DNA of 64,000 nucleotides from contig JAQGGW010000003.1 in NCBI GenBank assembly GCA_028289135.1, positions 66,015-130,014 on the forward strand, read 5' to 3'. The notes under the pieces were generated by a model, which saw nothing but the letters and a program-made list of their open reading frames with translations, did not search any database and was not told the origin of the DNA. A program made the translations under genes and the position numbers. Of this stretch, positions 9,604-51,435 are shown one piece after another (the stretch's first letter is position 1; the number at the start of each line of letters is the position of its first letter). The DNA comes from Candidatus Saccharimonadota bacterium. Lineage in GTDB: Bacteria > Patescibacteriota > Saccharimonadia > Saccharimonadales > JACDBH01.

Positions 9604-9637
9604 AAAAGCCTCATCTGATCAAGACGAGGCTTTTTTT
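9604..9637 (+). terminator. Rho-independent terminator
   Basis: AGCCTCatc...gacGAGGCT hairpin followed by T7. Confidence 0.6.
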
Positions 9638-10615: not shown

Positions 10616-10626
10616 AAAATTTATAC

Positions 10627-10923: not shown

Positions 10924-10940
10924 TTTATTACCGGTTTAAA

Positions 10941-10966
10941 GGGCCCCTCTTAGGAGGGGCTTTTTT
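10941..10966 (+). terminator. Rho-independent terminator
   Basis: GCCCCTC-ttag-GAGGGGC followed by T6. Confidence 0.7.
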
Positions 10967-11011
10967 ATTTGGCCGTTTGCCGAGGATGCTATACTACTAC
11001 AGCTTAATTAA

Positions 11012-11605
11012 GTGAGGGTAAAGCAGTTGAAGCATAGGCCATTGGTATTTTTGGACATCGAGACCACAGGGGGGAGCCCGCGATTTTCACGCATTACCGA
11101 AATTGGCGCCTTGCGGGTAGAAGATGGCAAAATTGTTAAAACTTTTAAGCAGCTTATTAACCCCGAAGAACGCGTGCCTAGTTTTATTACCAACCTCACG
11201 GGGATTACCGACGAAATGCTGTGGGATGCGCCGCTTTTTAAGGGCATTGCGGACGAGCTGGAAGTGTTTTTGGATGATGCGCTGTTTATTGCGCACAATG
11301 TTAGCTTTGACTACAACTTTATAAAAATGGAATTTGAGCGGATGGGACTGGCGTTTAATATGGACAGGGCCTGCAGCGCGCGCTTGAGCCGCCGGTTATA
11401 CCCCGAACACAAAAGCCACGCGTTGGACAGGCTGATTGAACGCATGAACATTGACGTTACCAACCGCCACCGCGCCTATGACGACGCTGAAGTAATCTGG
11501 AAGTTTTTTCAGGTGGAGCTTAAAAAGCGCGAGCTGGAGCTGTATAGCGCCGTGAATAAAGTCACTACCTACGCCCGTCCGCAAAAAGTACCTATAACCG
11601 GTTGA
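11012..11605 (+). CDS. DnaQ-like 3'-5' exonuclease (DEDDh)
   Basis: Exo I DIETTG, Exo II HNVSFD, Exo III HRAYDDA. GTG start at 11012; alternative TTG at 11027 after GAGGG. Confidence 0.85.
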   Translation: MRVKQLKHRPLVFLDIETTGGSPRFSRITEIGALRVEDGKIVKTFKQLINPEERVPSFITNLTGITDEMLWDAPLFKGIADELEVFLDDALFIAHNVSFDYNFIKMEFERMGLAFNMDRACSARLSRRLYPEHKSHALDRLIERMNIDVTNRHRAYDDAEVIWKFFQVELKKRELELYSAVNKVTTYARPQKVPITG

Positions 11606-12734
11606 GTACGCCAAGGCCAGTCGGCCCATCGTAGCCGTTTCCGCTTAGGCATAAATAAGTTTTACAGCTTCCGTTATGCCCCGACACAATGTCGCGGACC
11701 ATACTGGCATTAGAGTAAAACCAAGCTGGCTGGTTGCTTAAACGGCCACTAGCAGCCAACATGCCGGCTACCAAAGGAGCGGCCAGGCTTGTGCCGCCAA
11801 CCTTAAACCAACCGCTCCGGCCTTCGTCTGGGTAGCTGTCATAAACTGCGGCGCCAGTAGCAGGATCGGCATCGGCGGCTACATCAGCAATGCTGCGTTT
11901 CTTGCAGCTTGTATCGTGCTGCCAAGTGGGTTTGGATTCGTATTTGCTGCAGCCGCTTCCAGCATCCAGCCAGGCGGTTTCGCTCGTTACTACTGCGCCG
12001 TTCATGTGCAAGTCGGTACCTCCGACTGCGACAACATATGGTGATGCCGCAGGATAACTTGTCCCATAGCCACTGTCGCCAGAACTAGCAACCATAACAA
12101 CGCCGGCATGATTATAATGCCCGTCCGCAGAGGTTTCGGAAGCCGTTTCTGGCCCGCCATATGAATTGGAGACAACTTTTGCATGCAGGCTGGCTGCTTG
12201 GTCAACCGCCTGCCCCAGATCTGCCATGCTAGACGAAGCTGCTTCTATAAAATCTATCCTACAGTGCGGGCATAAACCGTGCACCGACTCCACGTCCATA
12301 CTGGCCTCAACCGCCCAGCCGCTATCTGCTGCCGGGAAGGAGCTTCCACCGCGTTCGTCATACTTTTTAAAACAGCTGGACTGGCTTTCTGATGTACAGG
12401 ACGGCAACGTAGCAATTCCAAATGTACGGCTGTAGGTATTTAGATCATCGGCAATGTGCGGGGCATCATAGGCCACGACAACCGCCACTACTACGCTTGC
12501 CGACCCCTTAACACCGTAGGCGTTTTTAAAGTCTGCCGGTCCATAGCCAACAGGCGTGCTGGATATTAACGGCTTGTTTTTGCTGTCGGTTACAATCTGG
12601 GCATTGCAGCGCGCACTACCTGCGGCGGCTCTTTTCGAACAGGCCTTTTTGGTTTGTGATGCGGCCTGTACATTAGCCGGTGCCATGCCAAATAAGACGC
12701 CCACCACAAGCGTTAAAATAATCCATTTTTTCAT
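11592..12734 (-). CDS. Secreted serine peptidase, sedolisin/subtilase-like (S53/S8)
   Basis: Signal peptide ...ANVQA; SSGDSGYG and GGTSLAAPLVAG catalytic-Ser motif. Confidence 0.7.
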   Translation of the reverse strand: MKKWIILTLVVGVLFGMAPANVQAASQTKKACSKRAAAGSARCNAQIVTDSKNKPLISSTPVGYGPADFKNAYGVKGSASVVVAVVVAYDAPHIADDLNTYSRTFGIATLPSCTSESQSSCFKKYDERGGSSFPAADSGWAVEASMDVESVHGLCPHCRIDFIEAASSSMADLGQAVDQAASLHAKVVSNSYGGPETASETSADGHYNHAGVVMVASSGDSGYGTSYPAASPYVVAVGGTDLHMNGAVVTSETAWLDAGSGCSKYESKPTWQHDTSCKKRSIADVAADADPATGAAVYDSYPDEGRSGWFKVGGTSLAAPLVAGMLAASGRLSNQPAWFYSNASMVRDIVSGHNGSCKTYLCLSGNGYDGPTGLGVLNRL

Positions 12735-12837
12735 CGGATTTCCTCGTAAAATTACCTAACCAGTGGACATAGTTTTATACCGCCCAGTTTTTGATGTCAA
12801 CAAAATATTGGCTAAGTAGTAATTAATACACTAAATT

Positions 12838-14886
12838 TTAAGCATCTTGCTCGGCATAAAGCGACTGCGAAACGCGTTGTATTTTTGGTCGTAGGGTTAC
12901 CTGCCTAAGAACCTTGATGTCCTTAAACTCATTCTTAAAAGCTTGCGGCGTAATGTAGCGGAACATCATAGTGGTCAGCGCTTTTTCTTGTTTGAACGTC
13001 ATTGGTTTAAAGCTAAGCTCGGCCTGGTAGTGGCCTTTTTTAATTTTTGTCATTGTTACCACTTTAGCTTTAAGTGTCAGCCGGCGTTTAACATCAGGGC
13101 CAATACTGACCTCGACATTTTTTTGCCTGATATTTTGTTTACTGGTTATTTCGGCTCCGCGCATACTAATGCTTTTTAGCTGCACTGCGCGGCGTTTGTT
13201 GTCGATGAGCAAAATTGGCAGTTCGGTTCGGAGCTGGTGGGAACTGCGGGATTTTTCGTCGTGGAAATTAACAAAAAACAATACCGAGCCAACAAAGAAT
13301 AAGTTAATTAGGTTCCAGAGCATTGATACGCCGGCCGTACTATGCAGAAGCTGCTGCAGGCTTTTACCCTCGCGCATAAACCAATAAAGCGGCGAAGCCA
13401 GCGCGCCAAACAGCGTGAACGCGAATAGGAAAAGTAAAAACCTGTAAGCGCTGGATTCCTTTTTTAGGCCGCGGATTTTAAGCGAAACTTTAAACTTTTT
13501 CTGGACGTTTATGATGCCTTTGGTAGCCATAATGTTGGCGTAGATATTGGCTATATTAAACTGCTCGGTATAAAGCGGGTGGAAAGTGCGTCGGGAAAAC
13601 AGGTATGTTACCGCGTAGGAAATAATTACAAACGGCAGCGCAACCGCTGTGTACTGCAAAACCGGGATCGTCGCCAAGTTATGCTGCAGCGGCAAAAGCG
13701 CCAGCAGTAAAGCAGGCAACAAAATATAAAAAAGCCGTTGCAGTCCGTTTAGAAAAGCAGCCGTCGAGTTGATGTAGCAAATCCGCTGCATAATGCTCAA
13801 GCCCCGTGCGCGCAGAGGCGAGTCGGCAGAACGGAACAAAAGCCCCAGTGAACCAGCGCCCCAACGCACGCGCTGTTTGTGGTATTCATTTAGATCTTCA
13901 GCCGCGATTCCGTGCGCCAAAATTTCGCTGACAAACAGCGAATTCCAACCTTTGGCGTGCAGCCGAAGCGAAGTGTGGATATCTTCTGTCGCCGTACCGG
14001 TCGCAAAGCCGCCGATTTGGTCAATGGCCGAACGGCGCAGCATGGAGCCGCTGCCGCAAAAAAACGCCGCATTAAATGCATTTTTTGCCGGCTGGATCGA
14101 CTCATAAAACATGCTCTGTTCATTCCAATAATTGCGCTGGCGGGTACGCCTAAATTGGATGCTGTCGCGGTTATAAAAAGTCTGGGGTGTCTGCACAAAG
14201 GCCAGATTTTCGTCCCTAAAATAGCCAAGTGTGCGTTCGATAAAATTAGCCTGCGGTACATGGTCGCAGTCCAAAAATACCATAAAATCCGCATCCGAAT
14301 GTTTGATGCCGTTGTTCATGTTGCCTGCCTTGGCGTGCGTGTTTTCCGTTCGACCCACATGTTTGCCGCCAGCCTTAAGAGTTAGTTTGCGGATGTTTTC
14401 ACGGTTGCCATCGTTTAGCACATAGACATTTCTGACACCATAAACGTTAAGCGCGCCGAGCAATGTCATTTTTACGATTTCCTCGGGTTCGTTGTAGGTA
14501 GTTATAAAAATATCAACCGTCGCGCCTTTTATCGGCGGCTGCCATACCGGATCCAAAATCCGCCGTGTCGTAAAGATAAAAGAAATAGTAAAAGCAATGC
14601 TATAAAGTTCGGCCGAAAGTAAAACGTAACTATACCAAACATGCCAAGATGAAACGGTCGTAAACCGCCAGACTAAATATGAAGTAGCCATCAAAAGATA
14701 CAGCGGCAAAACGGCTTTTAGCACCCGCGAACTGATACCGCCGGTTTCGACCTCATTAAAAACATTTGACCGGTAAATAAGCGTGCGGTTACTTGGCGTT
14801 TCATAATGCGAAACGGTCATTTTTTGGGCAATGTCAAAAACATCCGCACTATTTACCCCTTTAGACCAGCGTTTAAAACCCCTCAT
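12838..14886 (-). CDS. Processive family-2 glycosyltransferase (cellulose-synthase-like) with C-terminal PilZ-like domain
   Basis: GT2 D,D,D,QxxRW signature: TTYNEP, LNDGNRE, FLDCDH, TED, QRVRWGAGS. Multiple TM helices. C-terminal RSSHQLR...KSISMRGAEI resembles the PilZ RxxxR / (D/N)xSxxG motifs, with the first motif non-canonical. Confidence 0.8.
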   Translation of the reverse strand: MRGFKRWSKGVNSADVFDIAQKMTVSHYETPSNRTLIYRSNVFNEVETGGISSRVLKAVLPLYLLMATSYLVWRFTTVSSWHVWYSYVLLSAELYSIAFTISFIFTTRRILDPVWQPPIKGATVDIFITTYNEPEEIVKMTLLGALNVYGVRNVYVLNDGNRENIRKLTLKAGGKHVGRTENTHAKAGNMNNGIKHSDADFMVFLDCDHVPQANFIERTLGYFRDENLAFVQTPQTFYNRDSIQFRRTRQRNYWNEQSMFYESIQPAKNAFNAAFFCGSGSMLRRSAIDQIGGFATGTATEDIHTSLRLHAKGWNSLFVSEILAHGIAAEDLNEYHKQRVRWGAGSLGLLFRSADSPLRARGLSIMQRICYINSTAAFLNGLQRLFYILLPALLLALLPLQHNLATIPVLQYTAVALPFVIISYAVTYLFSRRTFHPLYTEQFNIANIYANIMATKGIINVQKKFKVSLKIRGLKKESSAYRFLLFLFAFTLFGALASPLYWFMREGKSLQQLLHSTAGVSMLWNLINLFFVGSVLFFVNFHDEKSRSSHQLRTELPILLIDNKRRAVQLKSISMRGAEITSKQNIRQKNVEVSIGPDVKRRLTLKAKVVTMTKIKKGHYQAELSFKPMTFKQEKALTTMMFRYITPQAFKNEFKDIKVLRQVTLRPKIQRVSQSLYAEQDA

Positions 14887-15118
14887 ATGTATATGATGTA
14901 ATGCCTATGATTTATAATTAAAATTATTGTTAATAATACCTATTTCGTATCTGTTTGTAAGGTGTAGCGAAAAGTAACGGTCACAGCGCGGCTTATACAT
15001 CGTACCCTCCCATAGACAATAGAGTAATATCTTTTGCTGCTAAGTAGCGTGAGAATTCTAACTGAGTGGCCGTAATGCTTGGTAATATAGTGAAATTATC
15101 TAAATAGGAGAATATAAG

Positions 15119-15292
15119 ATGACTAAATTTGGACCAAAGGCCAGCGAAAAAGTCGGAAAAGCGATGCATGAAATGAAAGAAGGTACGCTAAAAAGCGGTA
15201 GTAATGGCGAGAAAGTTACTAGTAAAAAACAAGCCGTTGCCATAGGCCTTTCTGAAGCCCGCCGCGAAGGCGGCAAAGTACCAAAAAAATAG
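15119..15292 (+). CDS. Small basic protein, 57 aa (resembles the DUF6496-type family from memory)
   Basis: Below the track cutoff. AGGAG SD 8 nt upstream. MTKFGPKASEKVGKAMHEMKEGTLKSGSNGEKVTSKKQAVAIGLSEARREGGKVPKK. Confidence 0.6.
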   Translation: MTKFGPKASEKVGKAMHEMKEGTLKSGSNGEKVTSKKQAVAIGLSEARREGGKVPKK

Positions 15293-15294
15293 CC

Positions 15295-15903
15295 TTAAGA
15301 AAAACTGATGCCTACTAAAGGCTTCATCTCATTTGGATCAACCATATAAACACGGTGGATCTGAATAGAATTATTAATCATTTTAAAAGCACGCGTCGGA
15401 CGGATTAGAATAAAGTTTTTACGAAGATCAATATCTTCAATATAACCGCTTACTTTTTTAGGACCATGTTCGTTTAGGTGTGAACGGCCATGAGCATCGC
15501 GCCAAAACGTATCAATGGGCCACGGCTCGTCAATTAGGACCCGTATGCTAACTTTAAGCCCTCGGTATTTTTCTTTTACTTGCAGCTCTGCTAAAAGAAC
15601 CTGATTATCCGTATAGACGGCCACCTGCAGAGCCTGTGTTTTTTGCAGATGCGCATTTACGCTTGCCTTGGCTATAATGGCCTGTTGCTCTGGCGGTATA
15701 TCGTTTGGCGTTACATAAACATTGTTATGTGCTCCGACAGCTGCAATATTCTGCAGTGCCAAAATTTCATCACGCTCCGCCTGCTGCTTTAAACCTGCTG
15801 CAACCGACTGGTTGGCTACGGCCGAAACAAACTCCTGCATCAGCCCCATGCCATAAGTAACCAGTTCCGTCTTAGCAATCTTCTTCTTAAACATATACCC
15901 CAT
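15295..15903 (-). CDS. Hypothetical protein
   Basis: 202-aa ORF; no motif recognised. Confidence 0.5.
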   Translation of the reverse strand: MGYMFKKKIAKTELVTYGMGLMQEFVSAVANQSVAAGLKQQAERDEILALQNIAAVGAHNNVYVTPNDIPPEQQAIIAKASVNAHLQKTQALQVAVYTDNQVLLAELQVKEKYRGLKVSIRVLIDEPWPIDTFWRDAHGRSHLNEHGPKKVSGYIEDIDLRKNFILIRPTRAFKMINNSIQIHRVYMVDPNEMKPLVGISFS

Positions 15904-15954
15904 TATAACCTCTTCAAACTTCTAATGTCTTCTTAAAACATTCAGCAATTGTGT

Positions 15955-16073
15955 GAGTGCAGCACAGTAGTGCAGTTTGTTCGGAACCCGAGTACCGAAG
16001 CGGAGATGTACGGAATGGTACATTGAGCATCGGAACGGAGGGTTCCGGGCAAAATGTGCACTGTGCTGTGCTC
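15955..16073 (+). ncRNA. Structured element copy 1 (unclassified ncRNA candidate; paralog at 51058-51178)
   Basis: 13-bp closing helix, 11-bp inner helix and apical hairpins. All helices are kept in the second copy by compensatory changes. G-U pairs are consistent only with the + strand. Confidence 0.45.
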
Positions 16074-16321
16074 TACCTTACTCGAGTCATCAAACGTAGG
16101 TTGGCGAGGTAGTGGTCCGGGTCAACGCTCGGGTGAGTCTGCAAATAAGCCATATGCTTATCAACAAAAGACACTAAATGGTCTGGGTGAGCATCAGCGT
16201 TGGCGCTGTAGCTGTCGATGGTTGAATAGCCAATGTCGGTGGCCATGTTTTTTAAAGCTTCCTGAATCTTCGCACCCTCTTCAGACGTGTACAAATCCGG
16301 TCGTTTCTTTGCGGTTGGCAT
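16073..16321 (-). CDS. Hypothetical protein, 82 aa
   Basis: ORF only. Its stop codon abuts the 3' end of element copy 1. Confidence 0.4.
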   Translation of the reverse strand: MPTAKKRPDLYTSEEGAKIQEALKNMATDIGYSTIDSYSANADAHPDHLVSFVDKHMAYLQTHPSVDPDHYLANLRLMTRVR

Positions 16322-16455
16322 ACTAAAACCTTTACTTGTAAATTCTAATGGCTTATTAAAAAACCACCTCTTAATGCCCTTATTATACTCCTTTAACAGA
16401 TAAAAACCTAATCCAGGACTTCACTTTAAAAACGTACTTTGCATAAAAAGTCACG

Positions 16456-16461
16456 TATAAT
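16456..16461 (+). promoter_or_regulatory. -10 box TATAAT, 6 nt upstream of ATG 16468 (leaderless candidate)
   Basis: cgTATAATaaacatATG. Confidence 0.4.
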
Positions 16462-16467
16462 AAACAT

Positions 16468-16797
16468 ATGATCCTGATAAAATACAGATGGTCGAAACAT
16501 TATGAATCCGCCGAGGAAGAACTAGTTGATATTCTGGCAAGCAAAAAAATAGTCGCCGAACGCTGGCACGCCGAGGAGTATGAAGAATTCAAACCTCACA
16601 AACACCCAGCCGATAAACAGCTATGGTGCACGGAAGGCTCGATTGTTTTTAAAGTTAATGACAAAGAAATAACCTTGCAAACTGGGGATGCGTTGGACCT
16701 TCCGGCAAATACAGTTCACGAAGCCAAAGCTGGCTTTAGCGGTTGCGTTTGCTACGAATACCCGCGGATTGCCGACAACCCATCAGTAGAAGCTTAA
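16468..16797 (+). CDS. Cupin-domain protein
   Basis: Small beta-barrel pattern: HKHPADKQLWCTEGSIVF...GDALDLPANTVHEAKAG. Confidence 0.65.
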   Translation: MILIKYRWSKHYESAEEELVDILASKKIVAERWHAEEYEEFKPHKHPADKQLWCTEGSIVFKVNDKEITLQTGDALDLPANTVHEAKAGFSGCVCYEYPRIADNPSVEA

Positions 16798-16863
16798 TAA
16801 CCCGAATAATCGCCAACCAAAACCCGAATAGGTATTTCACTTCGCTGTTTATATAATAGCTCC

Positions 16864-18429
16864 ATGGCAAAATCACAAAAACAATTATCAGTCTCCCCGT
16901 TTGCAAAGTTACGGGTAAAAACCGCCCGGGCAGTCCGCTCTGCTTCGTTATCATCGCAGCCAAGATTTAATAAAGTATTGCTGTCAAAAAGCGGCACAAA
17001 ACTTGCGACCAAGATGAGCCCAATTGCGGCTGCCTTGCAGTTTGAAAGTGCTCTTGGCAATGTGCCAGCTTATATGAAAATTATTAAAAGCAGCGGCTGG
17101 AAAGACAATAAAAAACTGCCTTTAGAAGAACGTTTAAAGCTTTTGCCAGAAACTGACAAAAAAGGCTATATTAATGCCAACACGACGGCCGAGCGTTGCC
17201 GGAATGGCATAATCCCAATGCAAGGCGCGGAAATAGACGAAAGCAGCGGTTCTTCTGGAATTCCTTATAACTGGATCCGGGGAAGCGAAGAGCTCGAAGA
17301 AATGCGCCGAACACTCAGCCGGCTTGCAACATTTATGTATGGCCCTAACATTGCCACAATCAACGGCTTTTCGATGGGCGCCTGGGCAACCGGAACAAAC
17401 GTCAGCATGTCGCTGGTGCGTAACGGGCTTTTAAAATCCACGGGTCCTGATGCCGAAAAAATGATGAGTGTTTTTGAAATCCTCGGCAAAGACCGTACTT
17501 ATGTCATTACTGGTTACCCGCCATTTTTGTTAGAACTTATAGAATTTGGCATTAAGCAAAATTTCCCATGGCACGAATATAAGCTGATCGGCATTGTTGG
17601 CGGCGAGGCAATGAGCGAAACTTTACGTTCGCGTCTTCTCGAATATTTTAAAACTATTACATCTGCTTATGGTGCCAGCGACCTCGACATTGGAGTAGCC
17701 TGTGAGTTTCCACTGAGCACATGGATACGCCAACAAGCCGGTAAAAACCCCGAGCTTGCCGAAAAACTATTTGGCCCAACGCGCCGTTTGCCGATGCTAT
17801 TCCAGTATGACCCGCTGGACTATTTTGTGGAACAAAACGACGCCGGAGAACTGGTCGTGACAGTCAACCGTCCAAGCGCGCTGTCGCCGCGGCTGCGTTA
17901 TAACGTGCATGACATTGGCGGCAAACTGGACTTTGATAGCGTCATCAAAATTTGTGAATCGTTTGGATTAAACCCCTTCAAAGACGCGCCGCTGCCATAT
18001 GCCGGCCAGCACCCGCGTTTGCCGTTTTTGTTTATTGGCGGACGAAGCGACAGCACAATGTCATATTTGGGCGCAAATATTTACCCCGAAGATGTTGAAC
18101 AGGCGGTGTTTGGAGACGCCCCAGAATCTGAAAAAGGTATTATCAAAAACTTTGCCATGGAGCTGGTTGAAAATAAAGAAGGCCAGCCACAGCCATTTGT
18201 CCATATTGAGCTAAATGAAGGTAAAAATTTGGGCGATATAAATGTAGGTGATCTTTCTGAGCGAATTGTAGAAAGACTAAAACAAAACAGCCGCGACTTT
18301 AAAGCGTCCGTAGCCGAAGATCCAAAAGCCGCCGATATTGCAGTTAAAGCCTACCCAGAAAACACCGGGCCGTTTGAAGGCATGAACAAACGTATTAAGC
18401 GTAAATACATAATAGAAAAGGCAAAATAA
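16864..18429 (+). CDS. Adenylate-forming enzyme, PaaK/CapK/coenzyme-F390-synthetase-like
   Basis: P-loop-like SSGSSGIPYNW in place of TSGTTGKP, overall PaaK-like layout. Start uncertain (16864 or ATG 17014). Confidence 0.65.
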   Translation: MAKSQKQLSVSPFAKLRVKTARAVRSASLSSQPRFNKVLLSKSGTKLATKMSPIAAALQFESALGNVPAYMKIIKSSGWKDNKKLPLEERLKLLPETDKKGYINANTTAERCRNGIIPMQGAEIDESSGSSGIPYNWIRGSEELEEMRRTLSRLATFMYGPNIATINGFSMGAWATGTNVSMSLVRNGLLKSTGPDAEKMMSVFEILGKDRTYVITGYPPFLLELIEFGIKQNFPWHEYKLIGIVGGEAMSETLRSRLLEYFKTITSAYGASDLDIGVACEFPLSTWIRQQAGKNPELAEKLFGPTRRLPMLFQYDPLDYFVEQNDAGELVVTVNRPSALSPRLRYNVHDIGGKLDFDSVIKICESFGLNPFKDAPLPYAGQHPRLPFLFIGGRSDSTMSYLGANIYPEDVEQAVFGDAPESEKGIIKNFAMELVENKEGQPQPFVHIELNEGKNLGDINVGDLSERIVERLKQNSRDFKASVAEDPKAADIAVKAYPENTGPFEGMNKRIKRKYIIEKAK

Positions 18430-27034: not shown

Positions 27035-27592
27035 CTATGTAGTTGCAGGTGGCTGATTCAAGTAAGCTTCAGCTCCAAGTTCTCTTAAGCTGACGTCTTT
27101 ACCTAGTACTGGGCTTAAAAGTTCATTTAGCTCATAAGCTTCGTAGGCGGCTCTCATGCCTGGGTCGGTAGCCATCAATACTCGGCCAGCAAATAAACCT
27201 GCATTAAATGCACCAGCCGGACCTTGAAATACAGCAAGCGGCTTACCTTCAGGCATGCCAATCATTGAGCCCAAGGCCCTGTTCATCACATCTGGATTAT
27301 CAGTAATTGAAACTCCCAATACTGGTAATGCCGTCTCTGATGCAACCATACCTGGTAAAGCGGCAGATCCACCAGCACCTGCAATTATTAGTCTTAAGCC
27401 GCGCTCTGCTGCTGTTGCGGCATACTCAGCCATTAGGTGTGGCGTTCTGTGTGCAGAAATAACTCTGTCTTCGTAATGAATGCCGTATTCCATCCCTAAT
27501 GTCCGCAGTGCACGACCTGCGTGTCGCATTACTTTTAAATCACTGTCCGAACCCATAATTATTCCAACTCGTAATTGTTCGCCTGTTGCCAT
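27035..27592 (-). CDS. purE: N5-carboxyaminoimidazole ribonucleotide mutase (PurE)
   Basis: MGSDSDLKVM and AGGSAALPGMVAS motifs. Confidence 0.85.
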   Translation of the reverse strand: MATGEQLRVGIIMGSDSDLKVMRHAGRALRTLGMEYGIHYEDRVISAHRTPHLMAEYAATAAERGLRLIIAGAGGSAALPGMVASETALPVLGVSITDNPDVMNRALGSMIGMPEGKPLAVFQGPAGAFNAGLFAGRVLMATDPGMRAAYEAYELNELLSPVLGKDVSLRELGAEAYLNQPPATT

Positions 27593-27593
27593 G

Positions 27594-28736
27594 CTAAATA
27601 CTTAATTCCCTTCTCGCTAAATTAGCTCTTTCTGAAACTTCTTCCCTTGATGCGCCGAGCACAGTTATATGGCCGACTTTGCGCGCTGGACGAGGAGCTT
27701 TGCCATAAAAATGCGGGTGCGTATCTGGCAAAGCTAGGACTCGGTCAAGTCCTTCGCGTGCTAGAGGTTCATCGCGGGTGCCTAAAATATTGATCATTGC
27801 CGCTGCTGGCGCGCGCATACCTACAGGCCCAAGTCGCATGCCGGTAATAGCACGGATGTGCTGCTCAAACTGCGAAGTAACATTGGCCTCGATGGTGTGA
27901 TGTCCAGAGTTATGGACGCGCGGTGCAATTTCGTTAATCATAACCTCGTCCCCACGCAGGAACATTTCTATCGCAAAGATGCCTGCACCGTGGAATATTT
28001 TCATTGCTTCGTGAGCTATTTCCTCTGTCCGCAGGGCAACCTTTGGGCTGATGTCTGCAGGTGCTACAACGGTATGGCAGATGCTGTCTTTGTGCACCGT
28101 TTCAACCGTTGGATACATGGCTATATTCCCGGCAATATCCCGTCCTAATACTACCGATAATTCCTTATCAAAATCTATAATTCTTTCTGCGTAAACATCA
28201 CCCCAATCACTTCCTAATGCTTCATTCGCAACAACAAGATCGCCCGTATACACATGGTTTTTTCTGCCATCAAATCCATCAGTTCTTTTCTTAAGGATAA
28301 CCGCGCCGCCAAGCGCCTCGCGTGCATCCTCTGCCAGCTCTGAGTTTGTTTTCCACGCTGGCAAGCTGGACAAATCGACCATAGGAGCAACAGGCAAACC
28401 GGCCAGTCTAAGTTCGGATTTTTGCCTATACTTATCCATTATTTTCAGAAGACTAAATGGAGAAGGCTCAACATTAAAGCCCAGCTCTTCCAGCTCGCAA
28501 AGAGTTCGCGCCCCAATATGTTCCACTTCCCAAGTAACAACATCTACTTGGCCCGCAAGCTCCCTAATTGCATCTGGATCTTTTATGTTGCCGTCAATTT
28601 GTCGTGCCCCGGCGTGTGTTGCCGGACAATTTGGAGCAGCTTCAAGCACTGTTACTTGAAAACCTAGCGGACGTGCGGCTTCAGTAAGCATTTGTCCCAG
28701 CTGGCCACCACCTACAATTCCAATACGCTCTACCAT
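27594..28736 (-). CDS. purK: N5-carboxyaminoimidazole ribonucleotide synthase (PurK), ATP-grasp
   Basis: GGGQLGQML N-terminus, ATP-grasp layout, ...APRVHNSGH. Confidence 0.85.
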   Translation of the reverse strand: MVERIGIVGGGQLGQMLTEAARPLGFQVTVLEAAPNCPATHAGARQIDGNIKDPDAIRELAGQVDVVTWEVEHIGARTLCELEELGFNVEPSPFSLLKIMDKYRQKSELRLAGLPVAPMVDLSSLPAWKTNSELAEDAREALGGAVILKKRTDGFDGRKNHVYTGDLVVANEALGSDWGDVYAERIIDFDKELSVVLGRDIAGNIAMYPTVETVHKDSICHTVVAPADISPKVALRTEEIAHEAMKIFHGAGIFAIEMFLRGDEVMINEIAPRVHNSGHHTIEANVTSQFEQHIRAITGMRLGPVGMRAPAAAMINILGTRDEPLAREGLDRVLALPDTHPHFYGKAPRPARKVGHITVLGASREEVSERANLARRELSI

Positions 28737-29731: not shown

Positions 29732-29758
29732 ATAATGTTCAAGTTAAAGGAGAAAATC

Positions 29759-31018
29759 ATGAAACACGTTAAACCGTATACGAAAGTTGCTTCATACGAA
29801 GCCGAAAAAGGAACATTTAAAAAATGCCTGCTGCTATATTCTGGAGGTTTAGATACTTCGGTCATGCTGAAGTGGATACAAGAACAATATGACTGCGAAG
29901 TGGTGGCGCTTACGATTGATCTTGGCCAAACGGCTGATGATCTTAACGTCATCAAACAAAAGGCTTTAGACCTTGGCGCAGTTGAGGCGATTGTTTACGA
30001 TGCCAAGCTAGAGTTTGCCGAAAAACTTTTAAGCTCGGCTATTAAAGCTAATGCCGACTACCAAGGCGGCTACGCGCTGAGCACACCGCTCGGAAGAGTA
30101 ATAATCTCCGAAGTGGCGGTTAAGATTGCCAAAGAATATGGCTGCCAGGTTGTGGCGCACGGCTGCACCGGCAAGGGCAACGACCAGGTAAGGTTTGAGG
30201 GCTACATTACCACCCTTGATCCAAGCCTCAAGATTATTGCACCAGTTAGAGAATGGGGCATGGGCAGACAAGAAGAGATTGCCTACGCGCACGAAAACAA
30301 CATCCCTATTAAACAAACGGCCGAGGTGCCGTATTCGTACGACGAAAACATGTGGGGCAACACAGGCGAAGGCGGCGAGATTGAAAACCCATCGCTGGAA
30401 CCAAAGCTGCCGGCAATTTTGCAGTGGTGTAAGACAATTGAGGAGACACCTTCTGAGCCAACTTACATTAAGCTAGGCTTTGAAAAGGGCGTGCCTAAAA
30501 AGCTAGATGGAAAGTCTTTGCCGCTGGCCGAGATCATTAGCGCCTGCAACAAATTGGGAGCTGAGCATGGAGTGGGTGTTGTCCAGCTGATCGAAGACAG
30601 ATTGGTTGGGCTTAAAGTTAGGGGAGTATACGAAAACCCTGCAGCCACTATTTTGATTGCTGCTCACAAAAAGTTAGAACAGCTTGTTTCGACCAGGGAA
30701 GAAAATAAATTTAAAACTTTGATTGATACGCAGTGGGCCTACATGCTCTACGCCGCGCAGTGGTTTGAGCCAACGATGCACCATTTAAACGCCTACATCG
30801 ACGACCAAAACCAAAAAGTCAGCGGCACAGTTACCGTTAAATTGTTTAAAGGCAAGACAACGGTTGTGGCGCTGGATTCGCCGTTTAGTTTGTTTAACGA
30901 AAACTTGGCCACATTCGAGAAAAATGCTGCTTTCAACCAAAACGCGTCGCCAGGCTTTATTGAGATCTATAACCTGCCGCAAAAAACAGCCAAAGGAGTA
31001 TACGACTATGACAAATAA
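29759..31018 (+). CDS. argG: Argininosuccinate synthase
   Basis: YSGGLDTS ATP-PPase motif. Start at ATG 29759 behind AAGGAG rather than 29735. Confidence 0.9.
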   Translation: MKHVKPYTKVASYEAEKGTFKKCLLLYSGGLDTSVMLKWIQEQYDCEVVALTIDLGQTADDLNVIKQKALDLGAVEAIVYDAKLEFAEKLLSSAIKANADYQGGYALSTPLGRVIISEVAVKIAKEYGCQVVAHGCTGKGNDQVRFEGYITTLDPSLKIIAPVREWGMGRQEEIAYAHENNIPIKQTAEVPYSYDENMWGNTGEGGEIENPSLEPKLPAILQWCKTIEETPSEPTYIKLGFEKGVPKKLDGKSLPLAEIISACNKLGAEHGVGVVQLIEDRLVGLKVRGVYENPAATILIAAHKKLEQLVSTREENKFKTLIDTQWAYMLYAAQWFEPTMHHLNAYIDDQNQKVSGTVTVKLFKGKTTVVALDSPFSLFNENLATFEKNAAFNQNASPGFIEIYNLPQKTAKGVYDYDK

Positions 31019-32911: not shown

Positions 32912-32986
32912 CGCGGGGTGGAGCAGTGGCAGCTCGCGTGGCTCATAACCACGAGGTCCCAGGTTCGAGTCCTGGCCCCGCTACCA
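32912..32986 (+). tRNA. Initiator tRNA-fMet (CAU), CCA encoded
   Basis: CGCGGGGTGGAGCAGTGGCAGCTCGCGTGGCTCATAACCACGAGGTCCCAGGTTCGAGTCCTGGCCCCGCTACCA. C1:U72 mismatch and close similarity to E. coli tRNA-fMet. Confidence 0.85.
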
Positions 32987-36194: not shown

Positions 36195-37304
36195 ATGACA
36201 AAACCCATCAATTACGCAGAGCTCGTCAGTTACGAGGATATGGATCCATTTAAAGTAAGCGCAACCCAAGCGGCTGCTTCAACGGCGGGCAATCTACAGC
36301 AACATGGCTACACAGAAGTGGGCGCAAGCCGGGGCGAATCAGCTTACGTATGGGATGAGGGCGACAAATACCGTGCAGGAGTTATTGAAGGCCTTGGCAC
36401 AAAGAATCTTGCTACCGATGAGGTGGACGCAGACAATCCGGATATGCCTTCGAAATATAAAGCTATAGCCCAGGACAGTATTGCAATGATCGTGAACGAC
36501 CTTATAGTTTGCGGTGCGATACCACAACTATTTTGGGTGCACTTAGCAGCGGGAGAATCAAAATGGTTTACGGACGCACGCAAAACCGATGCATTTAATA
36601 TGGGTTGTGCAGCAGTTTGCAATGAAATTGGTGTAACTTGGGCCGGCGGTGAGTCCCCAACGCTGCCTGACATAATTGTCCCTGGTGCCTCAGAAATATC
36701 TGGTTTTATGATGGGTGAAATTAATCCTAAGAGCCACTATGTTCCAGGAAATACACTAGAAGATGGTGACGCGGTTATCTTGGTAGAAAGCAGCGGTATC
36801 CATGCAAACGGCTTAACTTCAGCAAGGAAGCTTGCAGACAGATTATCGGACGGCTACCAAACAGTACTGCCTGACGGAACCACGTTTGGTGATGCTTTGT
36901 TACAACCAACAAACCTATATTCGAACATGGTACGTGGACTGCTCGAAAGAGGTGTTTCTTTGAAGCGTATGGAAAACATTACTGGTCATGGATGGCGTAA
37001 GCTCATGCGTGCACGCGAGTCATTTACGTACCGTATGCACGAGTTGCCTCCTGCCATGCCGCTATTCGACTTTTTACAGGCCCAGCTCCAGGTTGATAAA
37101 ACGGAAATGTTTGGCAACTATAACATGGGTGCTGGTTTTGCACTTTACACTCCACAAAGTGAAGTGTCGCAAGCTATTGATACGGCTGCGGAACACGGCT
37201 ATACGGCATGGCACGCGGGTAATGTTGAGGCAGGCCCAAAACAGGTAATTATTGAACCACTTAACGTCGTATTCTCGGCTGCTTCACTAGGCGTACGTTC
37301 GTAA
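36195..37304 (+). CDS. PurM-like (AIR synthase-related) protein, divergent
   Basis: Collinear divergent versions of PurM motifs: EGLGTK, VNDLIVCGA, GGESPTLPD, SSGIHANGLTSARK, NITGHGW, NYNMGAGFAL. Confidence 0.6.
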   Translation: MTKPINYAELVSYEDMDPFKVSATQAAASTAGNLQQHGYTEVGASRGESAYVWDEGDKYRAGVIEGLGTKNLATDEVDADNPDMPSKYKAIAQDSIAMIVNDLIVCGAIPQLFWVHLAAGESKWFTDARKTDAFNMGCAAVCNEIGVTWAGGESPTLPDIIVPGASEISGFMMGEINPKSHYVPGNTLEDGDAVILVESSGIHANGLTSARKLADRLSDGYQTVLPDGTTFGDALLQPTNLYSNMVRGLLERGVSLKRMENITGHGWRKLMRARESFTYRMHELPPAMPLFDFLQAQLQVDKTEMFGNYNMGAGFALYTPQSEVSQAIDTAAEHGYTAWHAGNVEAGPKQVIIEPLNVVFSAASLGVRS

Positions 37305-44874: not shown

Positions 44875-44951
44875 GGGGGTATAGCTCAGTTGGTTAGAGC
44901 AGTCGGCTCATAACTGATTGGTCCTTGGTTCAAGTCCAAGTACCCCCACCA
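44875..44951 (+). tRNA. tRNA with CAU anticodon, probably tRNA-Ile2 (lysidine-modified)
   Basis: GGGGGTATAGCTCAGTTGGTTAGAGCAGTCGGCTCATAACTGATTGGTCCTTGGTTCAAGTCCAAGTACCCCCACCA. Resembles E. coli ileX more than metT. tilS is present in the window. Confidence 0.6.
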
Positions 44952-45150: not shown

Positions 45151-45170
45151 AAAATCATCAAGAACATAAC

Positions 45171-45200
45171 TAAAAAGCCGCTGTACGAGAGCGGCTTTTT
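45171..45200. terminator. Bidirectional terminator
   Basis: A5-AGCCGCT-gtacgag-AGCGGCT-T5, between the convergent micro-gene and the ABC permease. Confidence 0.7.
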
Positions 45201-45939
45201 AGTTGGCGTCGCGGCGTTGGAATAGGAATGCGCCCACCGCAAGGCCAACAATAATATACAGGCCGCTCACAAGCGCATTTTGGGCTGGTGACACACCTTT
45301 AAAAGCGCCTTGAATGACTACGCCCTGGAGGCTCGAAAATGGCAAATAATGTACTTTGTCTTTAATAAGAGCGGCTAGGATATTCTCTCCCATCAGCGGT
45401 AATAGTAAAAAGGCGACGATGGCACCAATCTGGCTGCGGATAATTGCAACCAGGATAAAAGCATACATCGAATATGCAAATACGCAGTAGGTGCAGCGCA
45501 AAATAACCGACATGTAGTCAAAATGCTGCGGCCCCATAACGTGGCCACCGATTTTGAGGCCTAAAATGGTACAAAGCGGCGAGAAAAACGCGACAAACAG
45601 CCCCATTCCAGCCGAAAAAAGCGCCACCACGAACGCCTTGGCAAAAAATGGTTTGAGACGTTTATTGCTGCTGGTTAAGGAGTACATAACGGTGTTGTAG
45701 CGATACTCATGGCCCAGCTGCATCAGCCCGACAAACGCCAGAATAAGCCCCACAAACAGCACGGCACTTTTAGATTCCCCCGCCAAAAGATCAGGGTTAG
45801 ATAAAGATGGCACAGAAGCCCGTACGCCCTCGATGTAGCCGGCAAATAACGCCGTAATCAGCAAACAGCCGATAACAATAATATAGGTCGTCCGGACGGT
45901 TAGCAGCTTACGCAGTTCGGCTTTTATAGCGTTTTTCAT
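45199..45939 (-). CDS. ABC-2-type transporter permease
   Basis: 6-TM 246-aa protein, ATGA-type overlap with the upstream ATPase. Confidence 0.7.
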   Translation of the reverse strand: MKNAIKAELRKLLTVRTTYIIVIGCLLITALFAGYIEGVRASVPSLSNPDLLAGESKSAVLFVGLILAFVGLMQLGHEYRYNTVMYSLTSSNKRLKPFFAKAFVVALFSAGMGLFVAFFSPLCTILGLKIGGHVMGPQHFDYMSVILRCTYCVFAYSMYAFILVAIIRSQIGAIVAFLLLPLMGENILAALIKDKVHYLPFSSLQGVVIQGAFKGVSPAQNALVSGLYIIVGLAVGAFLFQRRDAN

Positions 45940-49069: not shown

Positions 49070-50188
49070 TTATTCCCAACGGAAGACACGGAAAGCGATG
49101 AAGTACACCACTATCATCCACACCGCCATAATCCCGAGCTGCGGGCCAAGCTGGGTAAGGTGCTTGCCCTCGGTCGCAATCAAGCGGGCGCCATCAATAA
49201 CAGGGGTAAGCGGGAAAAAGTTGGTAACGCTTTGGAGCCAGATAGGCATTGCAAAGCGCGGGAAGAACGTACCGCTTAAAAACATCATCGGGAAAACTAC
49301 AATGTTAGCTAGCGGCGCGGCTTGGCGCTCGTTTTTGGCCCAACCGCCAATGCTCAAACCAATACCCAAAATAAGCACGATGCTAAAGACCAAGAAAATG
49401 GCTAGTTCGAAGTAGTTGCCAACGACCTTGAGGTGGAACAGTGTCATAGCCACCGCAAACATCACTCCAAGCGTCATAAGGCCCACTACGGCGTTGCCGA
49501 GCATGATAGACAGGAAATACTGCCAAACACGCAACGGAGTGGTGTGGAGGCGGCGGAGGATGCCCATCTTTTTAAGTTCTGGGAAGATGTTGATCGGGCC
49601 AAAAATGCCCGCGCCCAAGATAGCGAAGCCGAGTAAGCCCGCAAATGTGTAGTCAAACGAAGACAAACTTTTGTCATTAAGCTGCTTTGGAACGGCTACA
49701 AAAGGCGTAGTAGTCTTAATAATGCCTGCATTTACAGGGGTAAAGTAGCGTGTCTGCAAAAAGCCCTGGACTGCCTGGCCGGCTTGGGCGCCGTTTTGGG
49801 TATACAAAACTTCGGCCTGGCCACTTGGGTGGCCGTCTTTTAGCTGGCCAAAGTTTGCCGGGAAGATAATCGTCGCGTCCAGCTGGCCGCGGGTCATGGC
49901 TTCTTTCGCGGCTTTTAGCGTATTGATTTTACTGTCAATTTTTAGGATCTTGTCCTTGCCCGCACTGGTTACAAAGTCTTTATAATATTGGCTGTCGGTA
50001 CTGCTAACAACTGCGACTTTAAAGCTTGTGCCAGAGTGGCCTGAAATTCCACCAAATACGAAAAGAAAAATTAGTGGGAACAAAAACGTAAAGAAAATGG
50101 CCGTTTTGTCGCGGAAAAGGCGCTTAAAGTTGGTGACAAAAAACACCCAAACGGTAAACAGCTTAGTTCTCATGCTCATTTTTTTCAT
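49070..50188 (-). CDS. ABC-2-type transporter permease
   Basis: 372 aa; N-terminal TM, large loop, 5 C-terminal TM helices. Confidence 0.75.
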   Translation of the reverse strand: MKKMSMRTKLFTVWVFFVTNFKRLFRDKTAIFFTFLFPLIFLFVFGGISGHSGTSFKVAVVSSTDSQYYKDFVTSAGKDKILKIDSKINTLKAAKEAMTRGQLDATIIFPANFGQLKDGHPSGQAEVLYTQNGAQAGQAVQGFLQTRYFTPVNAGIIKTTTPFVAVPKQLNDKSLSSFDYTFAGLLGFAILGAGIFGPINIFPELKKMGILRRLHTTPLRVWQYFLSIMLGNAVVGLMTLGVMFAVAMTLFHLKVVGNYFELAIFLVFSIVLILGIGLSIGGWAKNERQAAPLANIVVFPMMFLSGTFFPRFAMPIWLQSVTNFFPLTPVIDGARLIATEGKHLTQLGPQLGIMAVWMIVVYFIAFRVFRWE

Positions 50189-50961
50189 ATCGCGGCCAAT
50201 CCCTTTCCAGTCATTTCAATAAATACGTCTTCCAGGTTTGCCTGCTCGACTTTTTGGTTCTTGGTAAAACCCTTGGCCAGCAAGTTCTTAATGAGGTTCT
50301 TAGGCGTGTCGAGGGCGATGATATTGCCGTCGTCCATAATGGCGATCCGGTCACACAACACCTCGGCTTCGTCCATATAATGGGTGGTCAGGATGACGCT
50401 AATGCCGCGGTCACGGACTTCTTCAATGAGCTTCCAGAGGTTGCGGCGGGCTTGTGGGTCAAGACCGGTTGTTGGCTCGTCCAAGAAAAAGACTTTTGGG
50501 TTATGAACAAGCGCTGCGGTGATGCTAAAGCGCTGTTTTTGGCCGCCAGACAGGTTTTCGACGAAGCTGTTTGCTTTGTCGCCCAGGTTAACATCATCCA
50601 AAAACTTTTTAACATCGACTTTTTCGCCATAGGCCGCAGCAAACATCTGGATCAGCTCGCTCAGCTTGGTTTTGTCTTGGAATCCTGGTGCTTGGGGCTG
50701 GACGCCAATAATGGCCCGGACTTCGTAAGGATGCTCAGCAACGTTTAGACCAGCGAGAGTAGCTGTGCCACCGTCGATTTCGCGGAGTGTCTCGATCATT
50801 TCGAGAGTCGTGGTCTTGCCGGCGCCGTTTGGCCCTAATATGCCAAAAACTTCGCCTTTTCTGACTTCAAAGCTAATGCCGTTTACAGCTACTTTGTCGT
50901 CATATTTTTTAGTAAGTTTGTGAACTTTTAGAATTATTTCATCTGAGATATGTCTTGTCAT
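50185..50961 (-). CDS. ABC transporter ATP-binding protein (DrrA-like)
   Basis: Walker A GPNGAGKTT, LSGGQKQR, FFLDEPT. Confidence 0.9.
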   Translation of the reverse strand: MTRHISDEIILKVHKLTKKYDDKVAVNGISFEVRKGEVFGILGPNGAGKTTTLEMIETLREIDGGTATLAGLNVAEHPYEVRAIIGVQPQAPGFQDKTKLSELIQMFAAAYGEKVDVKKFLDDVNLGDKANSFVENLSGGQKQRFSITAALVHNPKVFFLDEPTTGLDPQARRNLWKLIEEVRDRGISVILTTHYMDEAEVLCDRIAIMDDGNIIALDTPKNLIKNLLAKGFTKNQKVEQANLEDVFIEMTGKGLAAI

Positions 50962-51057
50962 AAGTAATAGTATACATGTTAAGTATCCTCATTAAAACCC
51001 TGTTTCAGATTAAATAAATCCTCCATTTGAGAAATGCAGCTAAGTGGAATATGTCAC

Positions 51058-51178
51058 CCGGTGCTTTTCAGTAGTGCAGTTTGGTCGAAGAACGAGCACC
51101 GGATTCGGAGTGTATACAGAAATACATGGAGAAACGGAGCGGAGTTATTCGGCCAAAATGTGCACTGAAAAGTGACGG
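51058..51178 (+). ncRNA. Structured element copy 2 (paralog of 15955-16073)
   Basis: Same conserved blocks and the same three helices with different sequence. Followed 14 nt later by a bidirectional terminator. Confidence 0.45.
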
Positions 51179-51191
51179 CCTAGCGTCAAAT

Positions 51192-51219
51192 AAAAAGAGC
51201 TCCCGAGGGAGCTCTTTTT
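51192..51219. terminator. Bidirectional terminator
   Basis: A5-GAGCTCCC-ga-GGGAGCTC-T5. Confidence 0.75.
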
Positions 51220-51234
51220 ATTTGTAAGCGTTAA

Positions 51235-51435
51235 CTAAGCAGCGCGCTTGACTGTTAGGAAACCGTTACGTGGGTTTTCGTTAACCATCATACCTGCAGG
51301 AACAGCATCAACAGCCTCTGGGCGCTCGTCCTTGCTAAAGTAATAGATTGTCTGCTCTTTGCCGCCGCGTAGAACAACAGCCTTTGAATTTAAGAAGTAT
51401 GTTACCCCTTTTGAGTTTGTGTGCTTGTAAGCCAT
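51235..51435 (-). CDS. Small conserved-looking hypothetical protein, 66 aa
   Basis: MAYKHTNSKGVTYFLNSKAVVLRGGKEQTIYYFSKDERPEAV...; GAGGG-type SD region upstream. Confidence 0.5.
   Translation of the reverse strand: MAYKHTNSKGVTYFLNSKAVVLRGGKEQTIYYFSKDERPEAVDAVPAGMMVNENPRNGFLTVKRAA

Follow-up and report, generated by a model that had tools for sequence, protein, structure and literature searches.

The window analyzed here is a 64,000-nt stretch of the Candidatus Saccharimonadota bacterium assembly GCA_028289135.1 (contig JAQGGW010000003.1, positions 66,015 to 130,014 of the forward strand), and the element in question is a large imperfect hairpin that occurs in it twice. In copy 2, the main subject, positions 51058 to 51178 of the + strand form one irregular 121-nt hairpin, with 51058 pairing with 51178 in the minimum-free-energy fold of 51050-51182. 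Read along the minus strand, the order of features is the gene for a 66-amino-acid (66-aa) protein, a bidirectional terminator, the element, a TATACT hexamer, and the ATG of an ATP-binding cassette (ABC) ATPase gene. These features and copy 1 are given below; L numbers refer to loci and contigs compared with the window.

51058 to 51178, + strand: copy 2 rod, made up of the P1 closing helix, a bulged A at 51073, the basal core, a variable P3, the apical module, and an apical loop at 51116 to 51121.
51050 to 51057, + strand: conserved unpaired 5' flank, (U)AUGUCAC, present in copy 2, L005, L027, and L003, which represent two different loci.
51071 to 51083, + strand: 5' half of the basal core, GUAGUGCAGUUUG, pairing with 51154 to 51165 and invariant in eight Saccharibacteria copies.
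51093 to 51144, + strand: apical module, in alignments a diverged form of the family-wide unit, with P6 as UUC/GAA in place of GC/GC.
51154 to 51165, + strand: 3' half of the basal core, CAAAAUGUGCAC, from the alignment of Saccharibacteria copies.
51187 to 51224, both strands: bidirectional intrinsic terminator (A-run, stem, T-run), outside the element, with at least three similar ones in the window.
51235 to 51435, minus strand: gene for a 66-aa Saccharibacteria protein with 1526 homologues; the element lies just past its terminator, on the opposite strand.
50969 to 50974, minus strand: TATACT, a -10-like hexamer read from the sequence, ending 7 nt before the ABC ATPase ATG (50961).
50185 to 50961, minus strand: ABC transporter ATPase, 258 aa (Pfam PF00005, E = 3e-28), heading an ABC-2 exporter operon; a neighbor outside the element.
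15951 to 16076, + strand: copy 1, delimited by fold and covariance models (15955 to 16073 in a first-pass annotation of this DNA).

Copy 2 folds to -55.4 kcal/mol on the + strand, compared with -32.0 ± 3.5 kcal/mol for dinucleotide shuffles (z = -6.7; 0 of 200 as good), and its minus strand reaches only -37.3 kcal/mol. The basal core helix combines the bulged A, tandem U.G/G.U pairs, and a 1x1 G.A mismatch. Copy 1 reaches -76.2 kcal/mol on the + strand (z = -9.9) and -53.6 kcal/mol on the minus strand. The two rods fold alike, the fold of copy 1 spanning 15951-16076, so that the shared architecture proposed in the first-pass annotation was borne out. Both copies contain GTAGTGCAGTTTG and CAAAATGTGCAC, spaced exactly 70 nt apart, and the exact 14-mers AGTAGTGCAGTTTG and CAAAATGTGCACTG each occur at just these two sites in the window. 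The closing helices differ in sequence and keep their pairing, i.e., they covary, and mean column identity between the copies is 74%. Two covariance models, R1 built from Saccharibacteria copies and R2 from the whole family, each found exactly two copies in the 64 kb, copies 1 and 2; copy 2 scored 133.8 bits with R1 and 101.6 bits with R2. An alternative register of the closing helix that had been pointed out, GUCAC with GUGAC, is present in copy 2 but is not conserved (GUGUC in L005, GUACC in L027), unlike the CCG/CGG extension of the main register, which is kept in the syntenic copies. A 7-codon mini-open reading frame, AUG UCA CCC GGU GCU UUU CAG UAG (MSPGAFQ*; 51052-51075, +), spans the 5' flank and stops at the UAG of the GUAGUG core; its start and stop are kept in four copies (copy 2, L005, L027, and L003), and it is probably incidental.

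About 50 further copies, rods of ~125 to 140 nt, were found with pattern scans and the two covariance models. In genomes, the sole match to the exact-core pattern was one Saccharibacteria metagenome-assembled genome (MAG; L001), and in metagenomes five JGI contigs matched (L002 to L006). Because these scans were restricted to the exact core, diverged-core Saccharibacteria variants, such as that of L027, were under-sampled. A synteny search with the 66-aa gene yielded L005 and L027 with the element at the same place and L028 with a truncated one; the core variant of L027, AUAGUGUAGUUUG / CAAAGUAUGCAU, differs by compensatory changes that retain pairing. Six relatives with the same gene order (L007, L017, L021, L029, L031, and L032) have no element, only small terminator hairpins. 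Thus, within the Saccharibacteria, the element is limited to a narrow subclade and is polymorphic for presence.

The apical-module pattern also picked out 39 loci, with 46 to 73% G+C, in a viral-contig collection; R1 matches nearly all of them full-length (21 to 69 bits), and among capsid loci R2 gave 83 to 115 bits for its 14 strongest copies. BLASTN searches of plasmids located the element in Sphingobium, Shinella, Allorhizobium ampelinum S4, Agrobacterium vitis, Phyllobacterium, Ensifer adhaerens, Rhizobium sp., Bosea, Aminobacter, and Novosphingobium, all on large replicons (plasmids or chromids). Carriers made up 23 to 28 of 72,556 plasmid records, with 1 to 5 places per replicon. The phage GenBank collection gave no match. 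A copy is also carried by a low-GC, Rickettsiales-like contig (L043) whose terminase is closest to those of Rickettsia and Tisiphia endosymbionts. The family spans several alphaproteobacterial orders (Rhizobiales, Sphingomonadales, and Rickettsiales-like) and one Saccharibacteria subclade, always at low copy number. Three matches were discarded: L033, which has no hairpin; L034 (1170-1640), a CCGGAGC-rich low-complexity coding stretch; and L035 (3300-3554), a tandem array of the 39-nt unit GCTGCAGCCGGCCTGCAGATCATCCTGGAGCACCGGAGC. The last two fitted the apical-module pattern by chance and do not belong to the family.

From base to apex, the conserved architecture consists of a variable P1, a 3x3 loop (in Alphaproteobacteria), a 5' bulged A, a short helix with G.U pairs, a G.A mismatch or GA/GCA loop, a variable P3, a GA/GNA loop, the series GC, A.A, CCGG, A.A, GC, a GNA/GA loop, a GUAC-type stem, and a variable apical loop. 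The bulged A, the tandem G.U pairs, the A.A mismatches beside CCGG, and the repeated 2x3 GA/GNA loops are its conserved non-Watson-Crick features. The module is pseudo-two-fold, GAGCACCGGAGCG..GUAC-loop-GUAC..GAGCACCGGAGCGCAG, and Saccharibacteria and alphaproteobacterial copies have the same apical unit, C-GA-GC-A-CCGG-A-GC-GGA-G (stem-loop) U-GA-GC-A-YCGG-A-GC-GCA-G.

Covariation was extensive. RNAalifold predicted 48 pairs for eight Saccharibacteria copies, 27 with double compensatory changes. In a model-based alignment of 49 distinct sequences, 91.5% of cells were paired versus 58.9% when shuffled, 43 of the 48 pairs varied on both sides, and the covariation score was 0.724, versus 0.177 for shuffled sequences and at most 0.124 with the 3' partners slid by 1 to 3 columns, an alignment that was itself fitted to the structure. 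When 41 copies were aligned independently with MAFFT, compensatory changes were still present in 19 of the 20 pairs predicted.

The + strand was the better folder in all nine Saccharibacteria copies, by about 8 to 23 kcal/mol, and in nearly all of 38 alphaproteobacterial copies. Folds of the + strand contained 57 G.U pairs versus 3 A.C 1x1 mismatches in the Saccharibacteria and 172 versus 16 in the Alphaproteobacteria, i.e., 229 versus 19 in total, an excess of about 12-fold. Single mismatches were overwhelmingly purine-purine (A.A, G.A, and G.G), and the covariance scores of the two strands were roughly 50 to 65 bits apart. The first-pass annotation was therefore right in calling copy 2 a genuine structured element with the + strand as the structured one.

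Three other readings of the structure were rejected. A K-turn at the GA/GNA loops would need a register shift that, by inspection, breaks the well-covarying P3. Coding potential is at odds with an apical loop whose length varies by non-multiples of 3, and the + strand reading frames 15957-16112 and 16054-16326 are spurious. A CsrA sponge might be suspected from the five to six GGA motifs per copy; the apical GGA loop is not kept in copy 2, L005, or L001.

Copies lie at the ends of genes, and in most cases the 3' foot abuts or overlaps an opposite-strand stop codon. The gene on the 3' side of the element lies on the opposite strand in 9/9 Saccharibacteria loci and in 33/39 alphaproteobacterial loci (genes called by G+C content at third codon positions). 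At most alphaproteobacterial loci the facing stop codon is -17 to +1 nt from the 3' end of the model hit, and annotated records agree: Bosea, where the element lies past a solute-binding protein gene; Allorhizobium S4; and Sphingobium, where it lies past dmpG. Both window copies sit between minus-strand genes, antisense to them, and the stop codon (16073-16075) of a minus-strand 82-aa reading frame overlaps the 3' foot of copy 1. The neighboring genes are mutually unrelated and differ at every locus, and these unrelated, opposite-strand downstream genes do not fit a riboswitch or 5' leader on the + strand.

Since both window copies lie upstream of minus-strand genes, a minus-strand role, with copy 2 as a riboswitch or leader in the 5' untranslated region (UTR) of the ABC exporter operon, was also considered. 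That the minus-strand neighbor is an ABC exporter was confirmed by the ATPase reading frame and the ABC-2 permease gene that comes next after it. However, the minus strand folds much worse, the neighbors are not shared between loci, there was no Rfam riboswitch hit, and promoter-like sites lie between the element and both downstream genes, namely TATACT at copy 2 and AAGACA-18-TATAAT (15931-15902, minus) at copy 1. The leader was rejected on strand energetics and promoter position and is effectively refuted by the strand and context data.

The motif TATACT-N7-ATG is conserved in the window, L005 (8935-8960), and L027 (10436-10450); the generic promoter scan missed TATACT, its one hit there being 50961-50933. 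This arrangement suggests that the ABC ATPase mRNA would be leaderless or have a very short leader, starting well away from the element, and because the hexamer lies between the element and the ATG, the element is outside the 5' UTR. An overlap of copy 2 with the promoter or 5' UTR of the ABC operon, as originally suggested, does not fit this conserved TATACT, nor the deaminase gene that intervenes in L005, nor the relatives that share the 66-aa/ABC synteny and wholly lack the element. Nothing suggests that the element controls the ABC exporter operon. The gene inserted at the 66-aa/ABC junction in L005 (8394-8870) encodes a cytidine/deoxycytidylate-type deaminase, and L031 has an ~8-kb island at the same junction (10255-18100) with an IS1595 transposase and a Replic_Relax protein. 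The promoter-like site at copy 1 overlaps the first ATG of a 202-aa gene (15894-15931, minus); -10 hexamers 7 nt before or overlapping start codons suggest leaderless mRNAs in this Saccharibacteria lineage.

Placement just past stop codons might also point to the gene-sense strand. The hairpin would then be a cis element that works in mRNA only, a 3'-UTR or intercistronic stem-loop that blocks 3'-5' exonucleases or attenuates read-through and raises expression of the upstream cistron (capsid, solute-binding protein, or 66-aa protein), on the model of the malE-malF REP or the puf operon hairpin. The genes whose stop codons it follows include ones expected to be highly expressed (capsid, substrate-binding protein, and atpC), their strand is certainly transcribed in operons, and that strand is still very stable (-37 to -95 kcal/mol). 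However, the excess of G.U over A.C and the purine-rich loops place selection on the other strand, no U-tract follows the hairpin on the gene-sense strand, and a generic barrier hairpin needs no sequence module conserved across phyla. The asymmetry is also the opposite of what known mutation biases predict, since C-to-T changes, which affect the sense or leading strand, would make G.U more frequent in the gene-sense strand. A purely gene-sense role is distinctly improbable.

The same polarity bears on transposition. IS200/IS605 transposition reportedly puts the structured strand on the lagging-strand template, which for co-oriented genes is the gene-sense strand, opposite to the structured strand seen here; the GC skew and gene orientation of the window fit this assignment of strands. 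Because mutation bias and IS200/IS605 transposition both predict the opposite polarity, the asymmetry must reflect selection on a single-stranded + strand species. Judged from the aligned copies, the hairpin is evidently under strong structural selection, and the selected conformer is the single-stranded + strand.

The first-pass annotation read copy 2 as fitting a discrete + strand transcript of ~140 to 160 nt, ended by the palindrome that follows; as an independent small RNA (sRNA), it would act in trans or as cis-antisense. The structured strand is indeed the + strand, bidirectional terminators follow both copy 2 and the syntenic copy in L027, and a weak TTGAGA-17-TATGTC lies just upstream of copy 2. 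The palindrome is perfect, with 18-nt, 100% complementary arms (51187-51204 and 51207-51224) around the core 51192-51219 that had been noted, and the distances given, ~14 nt to this core and 97 nt to the ATG at 50961, were right, as were the sequence and coordinates reported for copy 2.

However, the palindrome does not appear to be the element's own terminator. It is of a generic bidirectional type (A-run, GC-rich stem, T-run) of which the window holds at least four perfect examples (51187-51224, 45168-45204, 7026-7057, and 9604-9634), it lies 10 nt past the stop codon of the 66-aa gene, and most copies of the element have none. In L005 the equivalent terminator has its T-run solely on the strand of the 66-aa gene; in L004 the terminator is upstream of the element; and at copy 1, L001, L003, and L006 there is none beside it. 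With at least four such terminators in the window and terminators absent or misplaced at other copies, the one beside copy 2 is a coincidence of position, and it most plausibly serves the 66-aa gene. The rod itself is not an intrinsic terminator, a definition that the separate hairpin 51187-51224 does fit: a U-tract follows the rod only in L002 among the nine Saccharibacteria copies, and on neither strand in the alphaproteobacterial examples inspected.

The 5' side gave no better support for a discrete transcript. For neither window copy did a scan for sigma-70-like promoters find one upstream on the + strand, and L005 and L027 do not conserve the weak -35/-10 pair that precedes copy 2. The upstream flanks of the copies are not conserved, and at several loci only 6 to 23 nt separate the element from the neighboring gene; in gene transfer agent (GTA) clusters it is wedged between genes with as little as 6 to 23 nt upstream, and at L036b ~14 nt remain to the next start codon. 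These features do not fit a stand-alone sRNA or a cis-antisense RNA of the GadY type. Copy 2 probably does not constitute a separate sRNA gene equipped with promoter and terminator, and an independent sRNA of the proposed size is quite unlikely.

Conservation in place was high. Between copy 2 and its syntenic counterpart in L005, identity is 92%, whereas third-codon-position identity between the window and L005 is 70% for the 66-aa gene and 55% for the ABC ATPase gene; the terminators adjoining these two copies are unrelated in sequence. The P1 type of copy 2 recurs at a second locus (L002/L003), and the L027 copy is a mosaic, with P1 as in copy 2, an interior like that of L004, and 72% identity overall. 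L001 and L027, both from one MAG, differ strongly. The identity of 92% against 55 to 70% at third positions, the shared P1, and the mosaic mean that the elements are under purifying selection or have been homogenized by copy-to-copy exchange; in both cases their decay is not neutral.

Many of the alphaproteobacterial copies lie within RcGTA-like clusters. Locus L036 is an RcGTA-like cluster (terminase, portal, prohead protease, HK97-type capsid, connector, DUF2460, and GTA_TIM) with two copies; in GTA clusters one copy lies past the capsid gene and the second past the gene upstream of DUF2460. The capsids adjoining the element are 59 to 98% identical to each other. Only 16 of 80 RcGTA capsid loci carry the element, and the sampled capsid loci without it have other, unrelated palindromic repeats in the same spacer. 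The element is therefore not an integral part of RcGTA clusters; it is one among several hairpin repeats occupying GTA spacers. The capsid-g6 spacers (L081-L160; e.g., L082 2796-2860, L088 2784-2900, and L115 2730-2870) form a hot spot where large palindromic repeats of several unrelated families occur, among them CCCTCCCCC...GGGGGAGGG and GTCATCCCGGC...GCCGGGATCC types.

These patterns could mean that the element is a non-autonomous mobile hairpin recognized as single-stranded DNA (ssDNA), of the REPIN/RAYT, IS200/IS605-derived, or attC-like kind. The + strand structure would then serve mobilization rather than the host, and where and which way the copies lie would be due to targeted insertion or to selection against insertions that do harm. 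Polymorphism for presence at syntenic sites, hot spots in common with unrelated palindromic repeats, a patchy cross-phylum distribution suggestive of horizontal spread, one P1 subtype at two different loci together with the mosaic L027, and the lack of a promoter or terminator of its own all favor mobility. The ssDNA recombinases of attC and IS608 also use G.T wobbles and extrahelical bases, in keeping with such a substrate. Against mobility stand the low copy number, the divergence of copies within one genome (the two window copies; L001 versus L027), the conservation of the syntenic copy far above synonymous sites, the strand polarity discussed above, and the lack of target-site duplications and of any transposase in the window or fetched loci. 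A mobile ssDNA hairpin seems unlikely.

The explanation that we favor, with a probability of roughly 40%, is that the element is a dispersed, low-copy hairpin, similar in kind to REP, ERIC, or RIME palindromes, whose + strand is made as RNA by incoming transcription, whose module binds a dimeric protein, and which acts at the 3' boundary of the facing gene. Transcription would enter from the 5' side, the rod being either the 3' UTR of an upstream same-strand gene or part of an antisense read-through. The symmetric module would be bound by a dimeric protein, and the complex would act at the facing gene's 3' end as a boundary element or a processing element, halting or cutting transcripts that otherwise enter that gene in antisense. 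The complementary hairpin, the weaker of the two, would stay in the facing gene's own 3' UTR as a decay barrier, and dispersal might occur by copy-to-copy conversion or through some mobilizing enzyme. To the structure, strand, distribution, position, lack of signals of its own, and conservation observed here, this explanation would add an RNA rather than ssDNA species, a protein partner, and a boundary function.

Several points weigh against it. Within operons (GTA clusters, ABC operons, and both window copies) nothing visible would transcribe the + strand, so that an RNA role there would depend on putative antisense transcription; the + strand may act instead as ssDNA. The Phyllobacterium copy L080 is sense-oriented within an operon, and another Phyllobacterium copy, L078, lies between divergent genes. 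Copies are few for a repeat (2 per 64 kb in the window and 1 to 5 places per replicon in the plasmid records), and terminal inverted repeats with target-site duplications, like a transposase, were absent from the window reading frames and fetched loci; "repeat element" is thus a description of behavior, not of demonstrated mobility. The protein partner is suggested purely by the symmetry of the module.

A bolder version of the boundary hypothesis, which we regard as quite unlikely, is a "gene-end guard", an RNA or ssDNA module in which the pseudo-two-fold GA/GNA-A.A-CCGG-A.A core would recruit a conserved dimeric protein and terminate or cleave antisense-bound transcripts at highly expressed genes. 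If true, it would be a factor-dependent, orientation-specific boundary element of Alphaproteobacteria (including GTA clusters) and Saccharibacteria, and an undescribed RNA family.

The genes of the window are ordinary bacterial ones: besides the ABC ATPase and ABC-2 permease they include Dus, a MurC-like ligase, MurJ, FtsH, a TilS-like protein, a GT2 glycosyltransferase, an RNase T-like exonuclease, purE/purK, argininosuccinate synthase, and a pilin-like protein. Every taxon-named match among the homologues of the 66-aa protein is Candidatus Saccharibacteria. Together with the sole genome match of the exact core, this identifies the window as part of a Saccharibacteria (CPR) chromosome. This protein has no Pfam domain, its best 120 homologues are 83 to 100% identical, and its gene is nearly always beside the same MurC-like and ABC/Dus neighborhood; it is a small, highly conserved protein of Saccharibacteria. 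purE, a purK-like ATP-grasp gene, an AIR-synthase-related gene, and argininosuccinate synthase lie at 27035-28736 (-), 36195-37304 (+), and 29735-31018 (+); Saccharibacteria are generally regarded as lacking de novo steps for purines and arginine.

Rfam 15, searched with the whole window at the gathering threshold, returned three tRNAs only; tRNA genes lie at 7245-7318 (-), 32912-32983 (+), and 44875-44948 (+), none near the element. E-value scans of copy 2, copy 1, L003, and L036 gave terminator-like or plant-miRNA-hairpin noise far below threshold, and there were no hits to SRP, 6S, Y RNA, riboswitches, or phage capsid downstream elements. Literature searches covering Saccharibacteria/Patescibacteria noncoding RNAs, rhizobial repeats, RcGTA sRNAs, and the module sequence gave no description of the element. 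The element is thus absent from Rfam 15; its alphaproteobacterial branch may carry an earlier name, RIME and Bru-RS having been compared by description only.

Definitions of mobile classes did not fit either. The near-identical, inverted, GTAG-preceded units of a REPIN are not seen, since the arms of the element differ at fixed positions and contain invariant U.G/G.U pairs and a bulged A; GUAG occurs only in the 5' arm of Saccharibacteria copies and is missing from alphaproteobacterial copies. Among the about 56 window reading frames scanned, no Y1_Tnp domain was found. A MITE, a miniature transposable element of the inverted-repeat type, is also a poor match: direct repeats do not flank independent loci, and the conserved parts are apical and basal-internal, with ends that vary and covary, the reverse of a MITE. 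By inspection, the foot sequences GTTTGGT/GTTTGTT and CAAAATG do not fit the attC boxes RYYYAAC/GTTRRRY, and there is no cassette array.

Covariation support for the family matches that of many accepted RNA families, yet it is absent from Rfam. Its carriers belong to two phyla that are very far apart, one being the Saccharibacteria, with reduced genomes and mostly uncultured, and it also lies inside GTA clusters of model Alphaproteobacteria, where genetics is possible. The puzzle is that the structured strand faces an opposite-strand stop codon and has no visible promoter, and that copy 2 and its L005 counterpart are conserved far above synonymous sites; models based on a REP stabilizer, a MITE, or an sRNA each cover only part of it. 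Solving it might bring to light a new partnership of a protein with RNA or ssDNA at the ends of bacterial genes. In annotation, neither an antisense regulator of the ABC exporter nor an sRNA with a terminator of its own should be read into copy 2.

Among known systems, the malE-malF REP and the puf hairpin resemble the element in being placed just past the stop codon of a more highly expressed upstream cistron, but they work from the gene-sense strand and have no conserved module. The example of GadY shows that processing can be directed by an antisense RNA from an intercistronic spacer; a promoter of its own drives GadY, whereas the element shows none. RIME1/2, Bru-RS1/2, and Br-REP1 share with it Rhizobiales hosts, intergenic location, and a palindromic structure of roughly 100 to 190 bp. 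IS711 uses a CTAG-kind site in Bru-RS, and type I copies of the element contain CTAG. We know of no report of RIME, Bru-RS, or Br-REP1 from Saccharibacteria. Br-REP1 of Bradyrhizobium, CCGGAATCTCGAGATTCCGG (PMC5082802), is clearly different from the element.

The nearest analogues in kind are ERIC and REP/REPIN elements. REP/BIME and REPIN-RAYT systems are likewise extragenic palindromes at gene 3' ends, often a few nucleotides from stop codons, with strand-specific imperfect hairpins and long-term vertical persistence, and the Saccharibacteria basal core opens with GUAG. However, REPs are 20 to 40 nt long and a REPIN consists of two REPs, inverted and nearly identical, and is present in tens to hundreds of copies, whereas the arms of the present element differ in a fixed way (GUAGUGCA versus GU-GCACA), its copy number is low, and no RAYT was seen. 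ERIC/IRU sequences of enterobacteria, ~127-bp imperfect palindromes of transcribed intergenic regions, are similar in size, form a single long imperfect hairpin at low to moderate copy number, lie beside gene ends and within operons, and are conserved in sequence across genera; they have reportedly been suspected of RNA-level constraint and of effects on the stability of flanking mRNA. They differ in having other host phyla and no evident sequence relation to the element, as judged against the ERIC primer sequences, and it is the present family that has a strong orientation bias to the facing gene and a pseudo-two-fold apical module. Dispersed intergenic hairpin repeats are a known kind of element; what is unusual here is the cross-phylum pseudo-symmetric core, the low copy number, and the antisense polarity to the facing gene.

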